64,000 nucleotides of DNA from Patescibacteria group bacterium (GCA_028707005.1 JAQTVB010000002.1:121-64120); one strand, 5' to 3'. Shown: positions 54,807 to 64,000, counted from the stretch's first letter. Translations and numbers: made by a program. Notes: generated by a model not told the origin, from the sequence alone.

Positions 54807-54896
54807 AAATTAAGTTGATTATTTGATGTTTTATTTTCAGATTATTGGAATAATATAACTCTCGTAAGACGTAGCTATTTATACCTTAAAGCGTTT

Positions 54897-54955
54897 CGTC
54901 CTAACGTATCTGCGATAGGCGCGACGTTTCAATATTGCTTATCGCGTGTTAGACG
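54897..54955. repeat. attC-like site 1
   Basis: cgtcCTAACgtatctGCGATAGg...cTTATCGCgtGTTAGACg. A degenerate extra GTAAGAC core lies at 54863. Confidence 0.55.
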
Positions 54956-54971
54956 ATGTAGCTAAATTAAT

Positions 54972-55310
54972 TTATCCTAATTTACTACCATTAGGCACGT
55001 CTTTATCAGGAACTGCTAACACGACAGAACCATCATCTCTATAAAAACCGGAACACAAAAATTCAGATATTAAAGGGCCGATTTGTTTGGGCGGAAAATT
55101 AACTACTCCAATAATTTTTCTATTTAACAGATCTGCCTTTGAATATAAATCGGTTATTCTTGCGCTAGATTTTTTAATACCAATTTCTGGCCCAAAGTCC
55201 ACTTTTATTTTATAAGCAGGAATTTTTGCTTGAGGGAAATCTTCTACTTTAATAATAGTTCCGACTCGCAATTCTACTTTTTCAAATTCATTCCAATTTA
55301 TTTGTTCCAT
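54972..55310 (-). CDS. csaA: CsaA/YgjH-type tRNA-binding protein
   Basis: The 113-aa form starts at [19 protein letters not shown] (ATG at 55310). The longer ORF-track start runs through an attC-like site. Confidence 0.75.
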
Positions 55311-55339
55311 ATTGATAAAAGATAAATTTATTTGGCTAT

Positions 55340-55404
55340 GTCGCCTAACGTATCGGGATATCCGTAGTTTTTGCGACCGACGGAAGCAAAAATTAGGGCG
55401 GAGC
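55340..55404. repeat. attC-like site 2, left half (AAC core plus inner box) with a local degenerate closing stem
   Basis: gtcgCCTAACgtatCGGGATATCCG. The matching inner box CGGATATCCCG lies 310 bp away at 55677-55687. Confidence 0.5.
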
Positions 55405-55420
55405 AAAAAATATTTTAAAT

Positions 55421-55642
55421 TTATTTTAACCCCGCGATGATAACAGCTACTATTGAAACGACAAGAGCAAGTATAGATAACCATTTCTGGAAACCAAGTT
55501 GATGTTGTGCCATCTTTGTCTGATTAATTGTAGCTTCAAGCTGAAATACTTCCGCAGAGGTTGACCACTCTCCACACTTGGAACAAGCATATTTTCCGAC
55601 TGGCGTTTTTTTCCATTCATGATTACAGTTGTTTATTATCAT
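55421..55642 (-). CDS. small zinc-ribbon-like protein with a C-terminal TM helix
   Basis: 73 aa. Contains CNHEW...CSKCGEW and a hydrophobic tail. It is bounded by a perfect 24-nt inverted repeat (55405-55428 / 55644-55667). Confidence 0.45.
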
Positions 55643-55675
55643 ATAAAATAAATTTAAAATATTTTTTAAGCGAAG

Positions 55676-55743
55676 CCGGATATCCCGTGTTATACGTCCC
55701 GCAGGGTCGGAGCGAAGCGGAACCGGATATGCCGTGTTAGGCG
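55676..55743. repeat. two tandem attC-like right halves (inner box plus GTT core)
   Basis: CCGGATATCCCGtGTTATACg followed by CCGGATATGCCGtGTTAGGCg. Confidence 0.5.
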
Positions 55744-55761
55744 ATGTAAATTTGTGAGCTT

Positions 55762-56277
55762 TTATATTATTATCTCTTTTAAATCTTTTCTTGGTTTAGG
55801 ACGGGGGTCTTCATCTGGGTATCCTACTGGTATTACAAATGGAATAATATAATTTTCGGGTATATTAAGAACCTCTTTTATTTTATCACGGTATATCCAT
55901 GCAACAAAAACGGTGCCAAGCCCTAATTCAGTAGCACGCAAAACAAGGAAAGAAGTGGCTATTGATAAATCTATATAAGCGTAATTAACGGGCGTCTCAT
56001 CAACGTCTGTGCTTTTTGGATATTGAGACGGATCGGCACAACAGATAATAATCAAGGGCGCGTCGTTAACATAGGACTGTTTGAAAGCTCCCGCTTTGAT
56101 TAGCTTATTTTTAACGACCCCATCTTTGACGATAAAATATTTATGAGATTGCACGTTTTTGGCCGATGGTGCTTTTCTCGCGGCATCAAGAAGTTCATTA
56201 ATAACTTCATCAGAAATCTGTTTCTTTTTATATTTCCTTATACTTTTTCTTATATTAATTGCTTCTCGAATATCCAT
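55762..56277 (-). CDS. nitroreductase-family flavoprotein
   Basis: 171 aa. N-terminal RKSIRKY...PSAKNVQ is typical of the nitroreductase fold. Confidence 0.85.
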   Translation of the reverse strand: MDIREAINIRKSIRKYKKKQISDEVINELLDAARKAPSAKNVQSHKYFIVKDGVVKNKLIKAGAFKQSYVNDAPLIIICCADPSQYPKSTDVDETPVNYAYIDLSIATSFLVLRATELGLGTVFVAWIYRDKIKEVLNIPENYIIPFVIPVGYPDEDPRPKPRKDLKEIII

Positions 56278-56316
56278 ATAGTCTAAGTTTGAGTTTTAAA
56301 GCTCACAAATTTATTT

Positions 56317-56373
56317 CCGATAATGGCTTCGGGATAAGCGAAGTGACCGGAGGGCTTTCGGAGCCTTATTATG
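56317..56373. repeat. attC-like site (short variant) overlapping the 3' end of the Fic gene
   Basis: ccgATAATGGCTTCGggataagcgaagtgaccggagggctttCGGAGCCTTATTATg. Confidence 0.4.
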
Positions 56374-62206: not shown

Positions 62207-62408
62207 AAGTTATTGTTAATGGTTAAAAATTTTTTGTAAATTTCGCCACAACGTTTACGAGTATCCGAAATTTTATTTACTCTACCTTATTATTGTTGAT
62301 AATTAAAGAATAAATAAAATTTGCGCGGAGCAGATGAGGCTGAATTTATAATTTTTACCTTAGATTAGCTGTTTTTTAATTTTTTGATTTGCCGGTGGAT
62401 AATTTAGC

Positions 62409-62436
62409 TTGACATTGGCTATGAATATGCTATATT
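62409..62436 (+). promoter_or_regulatory. near-consensus promoter (TTGACA-16-TGcTATATT)
   Basis: TTGACA at 62409-62414, extended -10 TGCTATATT at 62428-62436. Same architecture as the promoter at 57902. Confidence 0.5.
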
Positions 62437-62442
62437 GATTAC

Positions 62443-62520
62443 AGAGTATCAATCCGTGGAACCTCACCAAAGGTGGACCTCTGAAAACATCTTCTTCTCG
62501 CGAAGAGGGTGTTTTTGTTT
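62443..62520 (+). ncRNA. candidate ~75-nt small RNA whose 5' end is antisense to the anticodon arm of the adjacent tRNA-like gene
   Basis: Predicted start about 7 nt after the -10 element. 62444-62459 (GAGUAUCAAUCCGUGG) can pair with 62581-62596 (15 Watson-Crick pairs plus 1 G-U). Terminator: 10-bp stem 62488-62497/62502-62511 followed by a T-run. Confidence 0.4.
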
Positions 62521-62556
62521 GGCTTTTTTCATGCTATTATTAATTTGCGGCGGATC

Positions 62557-62641
62557 GGAGAGTAAAGCGCCTCGGAGGCGCCATGGATTGATACTCCGTT
62601 GGTTCGCTTTTGCGAATGAGGTTCGACTCCTCTGCTCTCCG
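62557..62641 (+). tRNA. non-canonical tRNA-like gene: 8-bp acceptor, 4-bp T stem, long variable arm, anticodon GAU, discriminator G (allo-tRNA-like)
   Basis: Manual fold. Acceptor 62557-62564/62633-62640. D arm 62567-62581. Anticodon stem 62583-62587/62595-62599 with loop UUGAUAC. Variable arm hairpin 62602-62617. T arm GAGG-UUCGACU-CCUC at 62618-62632. Confidence 0.55.
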
Positions 62642-62653
62642 CCGCGCTAAAAG

Positions 62654-62677
62654 CCATCTCACTTTGAGGTGGTTTTT
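62654..62677 (+). terminator. rho-independent terminator after the tRNA-like gene
   Basis: CCATCTC/GAGGTGG stem followed by T5. Confidence 0.6.
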
Positions 62678-62811
62678 AGTTGCTCGCAAATCAAAAATTA
62701 AAAAACAATAAAGCAAAAAAACTATAAATTCAGCCTTATCTGCGCAGTCGGATACTCGTTGTTATGCGCCGTAATAAAAAGCCAATTCATTAAAATGATT
62801 TTGGCAATTTA

Positions 62812-63243
62812 TTATACAATTTTTCTTCTGTTTATGCGCTCCACTGAGTATTCTCCTTGATTTCCTGGCGTTTCCCCTGTTGTTTCTTCTAATATTTTTC
62901 TGAACTCTTTCGTAATTTGACCGGCGATCGCGTCTTCATCAACATCAGTATTGCCAGCAAGCTTATCGTGGAATCTTTGTACTTTGTCAGTATTACCGAA
63001 CTTTGCAAAATCCGTCAACGATTTTATTATTTCACTCATAACAGTAAGAAAGCGAGCATAATTCTCACGATTTTGAGGAGCAACCAGATGGTTTTGAGCT
63101 GCTCGTGGCTCCTTTACAAAATTATTTATATATTCATGAATGCTTAAAAAAGCGGCGATTGCTTTTTCTGGGCACCCCTCTTGGCGCATTTGTCTTGTCA
63201 GATCGAGAGTTGTGTTTTTTAAGTTTTCTAAACGTCCCTCCAA
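62812..63243 (-). CDS. hypothetical protein
   Basis: 143-aa ORF. It is flanked by a cassette-specific inverted repeat (62761-62783 vs 63384-63406, 22 of 23 nt). Confidence 0.45.
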   Translation of the reverse strand: MEGRLENLKNTTLDLTRQMRQEGCPEKAIAAFLSIHEYINNFVKEPRAAQNHLVAPQNRENYARFLTVMSEIIKSLTDFAKFGNTDKVQRFHDKLAGNTDVDEDAIAGQITKEFRKILEETTGETPGNQGEYSVERINRRKIV

Positions 63244-63396
63244 TCTTACCTCTAAAGGTTTCTCTTTTATTACCTCTGATGGTATTTTTCCATAATAGTG
63301 ATGGTTATTAATGTATTAATGTAATAAGTTATTTCGACCTCACCAAATAAATTGCCAAAATTATTATTTAAAAAATAAAAGAGGCTTTTTATTATG

Positions 63397-63498
63397 GCGC
63401 ATAACGTATCCGAATATACGAAGATTTATTGAGCGTAGCGAAATAAAATTTCGGCGAGGGGCGGGCTGAGCCCCGAGCCGTATATTCTTTGTTAAACG
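63397..63498. repeat. attC-like site 7
   Basis: GGCGCATAACgtatccGAATATACG...CGTATATTCtttGTTAAACg. Confidence 0.55.
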
Positions 63499-63692
63499 AC
63501 CCGACGACCGAAGGGAGGAGAGCGCAGCGTGGCGCGACTGAAAGGAGCGAGTTTTGCCAAATAAATAATTTACTTTATTATTAGAGCCCTTTTGAAATTT
63601 TTTGGGGTGCTGGGCTTGACTTTTTTAGCAAGATGTGCTTAAATAATAAGTTCGGTTTAAATTAGACAAAATACAATAAAAAGGCACATAAC

Positions 63693-64000
63693 ATGAACAA
63701 AAACTGGAAAGCAATCTGCAAAATCGCAGACACCCACGTGATGTGGGCATTGGCAATGCTGGATGTGAACTCCACCATTGGTCGGAAGTTCGTGAGGCGG
63801 TTCCCCGAATACTTCACGAAGAAAAAACAGGCGGGGCCTTACCCGCTTTCGCTCATGCGGGCGGCGGGGCTGGAAAAAGGCTGCAGGGATGGCAGCGACA
63901 GTGGGGACGACCATATCGTCTCATACGATGCTGTACCAGAGGGCATCCCGGTGCAGACATTCGACAAGTTTGGCCGGAATGTCGCGGGTCTCAATGGCCC
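63693..64000 (+). CDS. 5' part of a G+C-rich hypothetical gene (runs off the window)
   Basis: An ATG at 63693 opens a frame that stays open to base 64000 (MNKNWKAICKIADTHVMWALAML...). A TTGACT-17-TTAAAT promoter-like pair lies at about 63615-63643. It is absent from the ORF track because it has no stop. Confidence 0.4.
   Translation, partial: MNKNWKAICKIADTHVMWALAMLDVNSTIGRKFVRRFPEYFTKKKQAGPYPLSLMRAAGLEKGCRDGSDSGDDHIVSYDAVPEGIPVQTFDKFGRNVAGLNG

Follow-up and report, generated by a model that had tools for sequence, protein, structure and literature searches.

The closest described relatives of the locus reported here are integrons and the elements that exploit Xer recombinases. In integrons, a tyrosine recombinase gene lies beside an attI site and is divergent from a one-directional array of mostly small, unrelated genes, which are separated by imperfect palindromes with AAC/GTT cores, R and L boxes and a variable loop; crossover falls at AA|C, the R'' of each cassette matches the remainder of R' at the cassette's other end, and the bottom strand forms the more stable fold. 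Relatives hold different cassettes at the same locus, and in the Vibrio cholerae superintegron homogeneous sites (V. cholerae repeats, VCRs) sit on unrelated genes. XerC and XerD integrate CTX-phage-type integrative mobile elements exploiting Xer (IMEX) at dif as a folded single-stranded DNA hairpin with a bulged centre, and such elements stack in tandem; Acinetobacter pdif modules are bounded by 28-bp duplex sites in alternating orientation that use the host XerC/XerD. Here we describe the last 9 kb of a 64,000-nt stretch of DNA from a Patescibacteria group bacterium (the whole stretch is termed the window), which is very probably a cassette array of an integron-like site-specific recombination system widespread in the Candidate Phyla Radiation (CPR, or Patescibacteria).

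This system shares with integrons every feature listed above and works like one, and it is not a canonical member of the family. Integron integrases are defined by an additional, IntI-specific domain near patch III (Messier and Roy 2001, as cited in PMC9668308), IntegronFinder identifies IntI by its intI_Cterm profile (PMC4889954), and canonical attC sites carry extrahelical bases on the arm opposite AAC (PMC5027507). Integrons extend beyond classical Bacteria to Archaea, including small-genome DPANN lineages, with the IntI additional domain and attC sites of the standard model (PMC9668308), and genomes of ~1 Mb or less have been reported without complete integrons (PMC4889954). Set against these systems, the CPR recombinase is ~45 aa shorter and without the IntI-specific domain, which also separates it from its archaeal counterparts (attC recognition was compared through a class 1 proxy only), and the CPR sites are without extrahelical bases. 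Their R and L boxes are 4/1 nt apart, compared to 6/5 nt in class 1 integrons, with a 3-nt bulge on the cleaved arm; the R stem reaches ~13 bp with conserved outer bases, attI is dif-like, site sequences are conserved across CPR classes, and the hosts have genomes of ~1 Mb or smaller. The integron likeness proposed in an earlier note on this DNA thus holds at the level of function and not at that of canonical family membership.

Within the window, all substantial open reading frames (ORFs) between 53.9 and 63.3 kb lie on the minus strand and follow 54 kb of plus-strand genes. The spacers of 54.9–63.5 kb carry one family of imperfect palindromes, numbered S1 to S8 from left to right, in uniform orientation on the plus strand. 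The left half reads nnnnAAC, then GT[A/T]T, then an 11–12-nt inner box of the form CnnnATATnCG, and the right half consists of the complementary inner box, a T and GTTnnnn; the motif AACGT[AT]T[CA] occurs seven times within 54.9–63.5 kb and twice in the remaining 54.8 kb. A covariance model built from 23 non-redundant sites of other genomes (R1) was used to scan the whole window with filters off. It returned 77 bits at 58865–58955 (S5), 75 bits at 63403–63493 (S8), 66 bits at 61838–61957 (S6) and 21 bits at 54903–54950 (S1; E 0.005), together with marginal plus-strand matches (E 0.1–0.35) at 55347, 55669, 57834 and 62250, all of which are split or half sites. Over the remaining 54.8 kb nothing significant was found (top match E 0.09).

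These matches and motif counts bear out the earlier note as to a single-orientation palindrome family, an array with all its genes on one strand and a sharp contrast with the operons to its left; the REP-like (repetitive extragenic palindromic) genome-wide scatter that the note had held against its own reading was not seen in the window's other 54.8 kb. The eight sites that it listed are correctly placed, and four of the entries are other than plain complete palindromes. At 57830–57979, a promoter and a small RNA come after a left half, and no complete palindrome is present; 55340–55743 consists of a single left half and, beyond a 73-aa ORF, two right halves in tandem; 56317–56373 is a degenerate variant below the R1 threshold; and the halves of 62244–62770 are perfectly complementary (12/12), yet split by a 490-nt insert. 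Likewise, the outer cores fit nnnYAAC/GTTRnnn, and only about half of them fit the strict RYYYAAC that had been proposed.

Sequence variation among the sites follows a folded structure. In a 23-sequence alignment, 7 of the 11 pairs of the L stem are changed on both sides and 96.8% of cells are paired, compared to 82% in shuffled controls (0/500 reach the observed value) and 23–53% when the partner is slid. Because the site collection had selected for complementarity, pairing was recounted on 65 pattern matches in which four positions were free; at these positions, 67/76 cells pair, with 19 distinct variants. AAC and GTT are invariant, core lengths range from 67 to 134 nt, and the L stem is an ungapped duplex of 11–12 bp with no extrahelical bases. 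A G-T wobble beside AAC is invariant (23/23 sequences), and the central region of the right half is 3 nt shorter than that of the left half; the halves nonetheless co-vary. When S5 was folded with R' taken from the S6 left flank, the plus strand reached −29.2 kcal/mol (z −6.3) and the minus strand −25.5, a difference of 3.7 kcal/mol in favor of the plus strand, which also presents the GCGAAGC/GAA loops; loop sequences are conserved among sites. Folding of both strands, as the earlier note had suggested, therefore identifies the plus strand as the more stable form, with the bulge on the AAC arm.

Within a site, the outer cores are not complementary to each other; each instead pairs with the flank at the far end of the gene segment, such that pairing of the outer 4–14 nt spans each cassette. 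Reverse-complementary flanks are GTTATATGA (right of S5) and TCATATAAC (left of S6), GTTATGCGCC (right of S7) and GGCGCATAAC (left of S8), and GTTAGGC (right of S2c) and GCCTAAC (left of S4). For S8, with right flank GTTAAAC, the partner is expected past the window end. Across all loci, the 4-nt variable core matches at 4/4 positions in 16/31 pairs of adjacent sites, compared to 5/85 for left against right flank of a single site and 6.6% upon random pairing. A class 1 integron control follows the same flank rule at aadB/aadA2 (L155; related loci carry an L and a number) and at attI1.

To place the array among relatives, species-representative genomes (596 Gb) were searched with a two-half pattern for which ~0.03 chance matches are expected. 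This search returned 63 loci, 41 of them with a CPR lineage name, 10 named only "bacterium" and 12 with other phylum names, the latter mostly on short contigs; the pattern had no match in viral contigs. The CPR names cover Magasanik-, Falkow-type, Kerfeld-, Kuenen-, Uhr-, Moran-, Yanofsky-, Buchanan-, Roizman-, Gottesman-, Peregrini-, Gracili- and Saccharibacteria as well as Paceibacterota. Site sub-families are near-identical across these genomes, and several of the loci are same-orientation arrays that obey the same flank rule.

The largest ORF cluster among the 63 loci is a tyrosine recombinase of 270–285 aa, present in 14 of them and always to the right of the sites, on the plus strand and divergent from the minus-strand cassette genes. 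Sampling that started from the recombinase gave the same layout: in L064 and L066 (~500-kb contigs), small minus-strand genes, with a site after each, lie immediately upstream of it, and in 80 metagenome loci chosen by recombinase alone, 35/39 R1 hits were upstream and on the recombinase strand. At ≥50% identity to the query, 15 of 20 loci carry sites, the remaining five being limited to <1 kb of upstream sequence, whereas homologues at ≤45% identity mostly have neither sites nor the attI motif and are probably other Xer-type enzymes. Next to two of the more distant recombinases (L100 and L091), sites lie on the opposite strand or downstream, off the usual polarity.

This family comprises at least 6711 clusters and has the domain make-up PF13495 + PF00589. 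Its best solved relative is VchIntIA (E 3e-44), compared to XerA (2e-38) and XerD (1.5e-24). The VchIntIA alignment falls into two stretches that skip IntI residues 175–240, leaving 23 aa opposite 66 aa of IntI, and identity to IntI1 is 31%, with 47 gap positions in the IntI-specific region (the IntI1 sequence used is 100% identical to plasmid records). The XerA model NF040815 is passed at 225–229 bits (cut-off 220). A 285-aa ORF to the left of the window's array, considered as a candidate recombinase, proved to be a glycosyltransferase.

Between 100 and 130 nt upstream of the recombinase start lies the attI site, which reads ATTTC-nnnn-AA|C, then TCGTT(T/A), then TTATACGAAGT; a second copy, TATTATACGAA, follows ~40 nt beyond the attI core and precedes a −10 box. 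The core is an imperfect inverted repeat whose arms end in ...ATAA and begin with TTAT..., as in Xer dif sites. It shares nnnnAAC with the cassette sites and diverges immediately after, and in L058, L035, L017, L019 and L045 the nnnn of its left flank complements the right flank of the closest site. Since the cassette left half carries the first arm of attI and the L' box resembles the second, a folded site would mimic the duplex attI core.

The complementary cassette ends are explained by a crossover inside the conserved AAC of a palindromic site, and the flank comparisons put the exchange point at AA|C on the plus strand. Homology between 58865–60363 and L059 3202–4698 (~1.5 kb at 88.9% identity, covering the site and a Fic gene) begins exactly at the S5 AAC, and S5-type sites elsewhere keep the right flank and not the left. 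Together with the divergence of attI after AAC, this assigns each site to the minus-strand gene on its right, downstream of which it lies. Tyrosine recombinases cleave at the junction of arm and central region, on the strand in which the arm lies 5′ of the central region. By this standard chemistry the plus strand would be the recombined "bottom" strand, as in integrons, an assignment supported by fold stability, the invariant G-T wobble and the plus-strand loops.

The position of the window on its contig bears on the recombinase. A glycosyltransferase encoded just left of the array shares 100% identity with a protein of an NCBI metagenome-assembled genome (MAG) named "Patescibacteria group bacterium", in agreement with the CPR origin that had been proposed from the sequence, and its source contig measures 64,488 nt; the window nearly fills this contig, and the assembly thus stops inside the array. 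In a 75% identical relative with a 289-kb contig (L147; GCA_964560005.1), the same glycosyltransferase/sugar operon, a 107-aa tRNA-binding (CsaA) gene and a 194-aa gene precede nine small minus-strand genes unlike those of the window, with sites (75, 50 and 24 bits), and then attI and, at the right end of the array, the recombinase. L147 and the window thus share a single platform at one locus, filled with different cassettes, the variation between relatives for which the earlier note had advised looking. Based on the L147 layout, the recombinase and attI are predicted to lie to the right of position 64,000. The end of the contig within the array accounts for the absence of the recombinase from the window; the earlier description of an array without integrase is correct for the window and reflects an edge effect, related loci carrying the recombinase.

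A cassette consists of one or a few minus-strand genes and a 3′ module ending in an imperfect palindrome of 67–134 nt. Folded on the plus strand, the site would present an R stem ATTTC-nnnn-AAC/GTT-nnnn-GATGT, the G-T wobble, a bulge T[A/T]T, the 11–12-bp L stem and a branched loop, and would thereby mimic the double-stranded, dif-like attI core upstream of a recombinase transcribed away from the array. The recombinase would cleave after AA in the R' arm. Exchange between two sites would release a circular cassette, and exchange between a folded site and attI would insert a cassette beside the recombinase gene. The likely substrate is folded single-stranded DNA, the products would be resolved by replication, and the linked recombinase is the presumed catalyst. 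Each computed test of such an integron-type mechanism (L-box pairing, R-box pairing across cassettes, the AAC boundary, the linked recombinase and attI in related loci, and the exchange of cassettes at a conserved locus in L147) gave a positive result.

Several observations weigh against an integron-like array. Besides lacking the ~45-aa IntI-specific domain, which canonical attC recombination requires, the recombinase scores 219–233 bits, in two stretches, with the NCBIfam integron integrase model TIGR02249, below its cut-off of 265. In class 1 attC sites from plasmids, the unpaired spacer measures 6/5 nt and the 3′ arm has one base more, whereas the CPR sites have a single 3-nt bulge on the AAC (cleaved) arm, opposite to the canonical unpaired bases. 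A proxy model built from six class 1 attC sites (R2), a small set whose result is only indicative, gave 42–77 bits for its training sites, 19.7 bits for a held-out dfrA27 site and at most 10 bits (E ~3, background) for the window sites. Taken as duplex DNA, the left half is colinear with attI and compatible with ordinary double-strand recombination. The S6/S7 and S4/S5 flanks mismatch, and several sites are split or degenerate. Upon tblastn with a CPR recombinase, the window yielded no match, and attI is absent from it too. Finally, no sign of activity, such as excised circles or empty sites, was seen.

An alternative is that the recombinase is the housekeeping Xer enzyme of the cell, for which attI would be the chromosomal dif, with units exchanged as pdif-like duplex modules or stacked in the manner of IMEX. 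The dif-like attI arms, the passing of the XerA model, the very large size of the family and the colinear duplex left half all fit such a system, and in the window both the gene strand and the GC skew change where the array begins. We nevertheless consider it unlikely, since right halves that are 3 nt shorter in their centre are not equivalent duplex sites, yet co-vary with the left halves, and since the complementary cassette ends are explained only by pairing in a folded or circular form. Furthermore, the left halves are all direct repeats without pdif-like alternation, dnaA lies 6 kb from the recombinase in L066, and the array of L064 is a local island between plus-strand housekeeping genes rather than at a strand switch. 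The idea that the strand and skew switch marks a replication terminus finds no support in these contexts (L064 and L066). Like pdif modules, the CPR arrays are serial gene modules bounded by inverted Xer-type arms, but the two halves of a pair have spacers 3 nt apart in length and co-vary as a hairpin, all in a single orientation. With archaeal XerA/dif and the NF040815 family ("site-specific tyrosine recombinase/integron integrase"), the CPR enzyme shares the model, the length and the domains; XerA, however, serves housekeeping dimer resolution without a cassette array, whereas the CPR enzyme is linked to arrays of hairpin sites. CTX-phage IMEX share the bulged folded hairpin that mimics a duplex dif-type core, as well as tandem stacking, whereas the CPR units are small cassettes in long arrays, not phage genomes, with a dedicated recombinase gene beside the site and no sign of a role in chromosome dimer resolution. 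A hairpin IMEX reading of the CTX-phage kind is compatible with the integron-like system and is no rival to it.

The array might, alternatively, be an ordinary integron fragment, or cluster of attC sites lacking an integron integrase (CALIN), in which canonical attC sites are served by a true IntI encoded elsewhere in the genome. Its layout (AAC/GTT cores, the cassette-end rule, same-strand cassettes and a divergent recombinase) and the 67–134-nt size range are those of attC arrays, yet the recombinase adjoining such arrays is without the IntI insertion in 14 + 20 + 3 independent loci and fails the TIGR02249 cut-off. The reversed geometry of unpaired bases, the L stem without extrahelical bases and the background score of the class 1 proxy, set against 19.7 bits for a held-out class 1 site, make a CALIN very unlikely. 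Readings that leave out site-specific recombination fare worst. That the palindromes are REP-like repeats, terminators or structured RNA elements of 3′ untranslated regions with no role in mobility could be argued from their place downstream of genes, their stable folds and their conserved loops. This is extremely unlikely, given that R1 hits are confined to the array in the window and elsewhere cluster upstream of the recombinase, that no T run follows the sites on either strand, that Rfam, at its gathering threshold, finds no match in the window, and that an RNA role cannot explain the cross-cassette complementarity, the junction rule at attI or the linkage to a recombinase. Equally hard to credit are miniature transposons with terminal inverted repeats (miniature inverted-repeat transposable elements, MITEs, or IS200/IS605-type elements), which would be suggested by the inverted-repeat-like halves that sometimes enclose cargo (S7, S2, L012 and L056) and by an IS200/IS605-type Y1 transposase gene inside one array (L066 6192–6794). 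There are no target-site duplications, unit flanks are unrelated and gene-segment flanks are inverted complements, inner boxes vary between copies yet stay complementary, unlike a single transposase-binding sequence, and no transposase is consistently linked to the sites.

At the level of the family, the integron-like system is a new variant of the integron principle, widespread in CPR bacteria. Full-text literature searches, whose coverage was incomplete, found no description of integron-like arrays in CPR/Patescibacteria, which agrees with the novelty that the earlier note had surmised, and CPR bacteria are not mentioned in the archaeal integron paper (PMC9668308) or in the IntegronFinder papers (PMC4889954). 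Integrons are the classic platform for gene capture, and among the open questions about them are how IntI/attC arose from Xer/dif and how cassettes are made. If the reading is true, integron logic without the IntI domain or extrahelical bases would be a testable intermediate, and episymbionts of ~1 Mb, the smallest bacteria known, would maintain a locus dedicated to gene capture and exchange cassettes between deep lineages. Cargo in the window and related loci includes Fic, NUDIX, nitroreductase, restriction-modification methylase, toxin-like and tRNA-like genes, and site modules of ~260 nt are >95% identical across genomes whose recombinases are only 40–50% identical. The chances are evenly balanced that the CPR arrays represent a phylum-wide sister lineage or ancestral form of integrons, with a recombinase intermediate between Xer and IntI that is without the domain binding extrahelical bases, hairpins that mimic attI and a cassette pool shared across classes. 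As IntegronFinder keys on the region that this recombinase lacks (PMC4889954), it should not call these loci complete integrons, and current surveys may miss or under-call them.

The sites form part of a larger 3′ module. Between S5 and the stop codon of the adjacent Fic gene lies a hairpin with a co-varying stem and the G-rich loop AGAGGGTTAAGGGGTGAAT (G-loop hairpin; 59040..59092, plus strand). It occurs in 42 copies at 35 loci (for example L009 227, L016 1775 and L056 1172), always on the same strand as the sites and always with a site on one side and the stop codon of a minus-strand gene on the other, with a loop AGAGGGG(YTR)GGGGTGAAT followed by CTCCTTATT. A small ORF beginning within the sub-family A form of this hairpin (14 loci) was set aside, the remaining hairpin variants being without ATG. 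Site and hairpin together (58865–59089) behave as a portable module that is 95% identical in L016, with homology stopping at the stop codon. Sub-family A (L009, L014, L017, L020, L035, L049 and L061) adds an extension of 168–172 nt to the site; the resulting ~260-nt 3′ module is >95% identical across genomes named as different CPR classes and abuts the stop codons of unrelated ORFs (374, 446, 661, 729, 775 and 921 aa), where homology ends. So sharply bounded a module, made up of site, extension and G-loop hairpin, may reveal how cassettes come about. At L017, L009, L041 and L019, attI is directly preceded on its left by the sub-family A extension in reverse complement, which gives the first cassette terminal inverted repeats of ~150 nt.

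In the window, the distal and older part of the array (54893..58413) holds sites S1–S4 and their minus-strand cassettes, identified with R1 and Pfam. S1 (54893–54958, plus strand) precedes a CsaA-type tRNA-binding gene (54972–55310), 0.8 kb from a second minus-strand gene of this type (53877–54200); the latter is conserved in the chromosome and present in L147 too, and the former is the cassette copy. S2 is split into a left half with its own hairpin (S2a, 55336–55404), a minus-strand 73-aa ORF (55421–55642) and two tandem right halves (S2b and S2c, 55676–55743), the inner box of S2a, CGGGATATCCG, complementing that of S2b exactly; S2 is also where a Logan contig from the same strain breaks off. 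A nitroreductase gene (55762–56277) is followed by the degenerate S3 (56317–56373), in which AAT-GGCT replaces AAC-GTAT, by a Fic gene (56369–57427) and by a weak HNH-like gene (57500–57808). S4 (57826–57852, plus strand) is a left half only. To its right, before a minus-strand 139-aa ORF (57994–58413), the plus strand carries a 12/12 consensus sigma-70-type promoter (TTGACA-16-TATAAT) and a ~55-nt hairpin RNA ending in a T run (57902..57990). The corresponding promoter/RNA module, 130 nt in length, is 83% identical at L147 11894–12021; it lies at the distal array edge in L147 and mid-array in the window.

To the right of this part, a NUDIX hydrolase gene (58443..58835, minus strand; PF00293, E 8e-17) adjoins S5 (58851..58970, plus strand). 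On the plus strand, the S5 core comprises R' nnnnAAC, the G-T wobble, a bulge of 3 nt (TAT), the L' box CGCTATATCCG, two mini-hairpins (GCGAAGC) within the loop, the L'' box CGGATATAGCG, a T and R'' GTTATAT; near-identical copies are found in L010, L016, L042, L050 and L059. The S5–S6 cassette (59086..61730, minus strand) combines a Fic gene (59086–60186) with a NAPRTase gene (60366–61730). Upstream of the Fic gene (60187–60366), three copies of AGAATAAGG in palindromic arrangement may be operator sites; the L059 homology stops within this interval, at 60363, adjoining the NAPRTase stop codon, where no recognisable site is seen. S6 (61824..61968, plus strand) precedes a 75-aa cassette ORF (61979..62206, minus strand), and a 143-aa ORF (62812..63243, minus strand) lies between S7 and S8, both without an assigned function. 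Exact database look-ups of two cassette proteins gave no match. Among the gene calls of the earlier note, Pfam upholds the tRNA-binding protein, the nitroreductase, the two Fic proteins, the NUDIX hydrolase and the NAPRTase; the HNH assignment is weak (E 0.01–0.05), and the proposed zinc-ribbon membrane protein has no Pfam support.

S8 (63389..63560, plus strand) continues into a "type-ii" extension, CGACCCGA...GAGAGCGCAGCGTGG, which resembles a degenerate second right half and is conserved in >40 loci. Many sites are followed in this way by GTTAnnnGNCCCGA, a mini-hairpin and GAGAGYGCARCGTGG (63494–63560 in the window), and the S2b/S2c pair is the intact version of such a tandem second right half. 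From 63554 to 64000, the G+C content of the plus strand is much above that of the array, and an ORF with a promoter-like site starts at 63693, opposite to the cassette genes; it had no Pfam match and no relative in the genome and metagenome scans.

S7 (62240..62775, plus strand) has its left half at 62250–62268 and its right half at 62748–62764. The 490-nt insert between its inner boxes holds, all on the plus strand, a near-perfect promoter (62409–62436), an RNA of ~75 nt with its own terminator (62482–62517) and a tRNA-Sec-like gene (62556–62641). ARAGORN calls this gene tRNA-Ile(gat) of 87 nt, and the Rfam tRNA-Sec model matches it over its full length at 44.1 bits (E 2e-6; gathering score 47). 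The two models combined suggest a Sec-type long acceptor stem with a non-Sec anticodon, which we take to be allo-tRNA-like.

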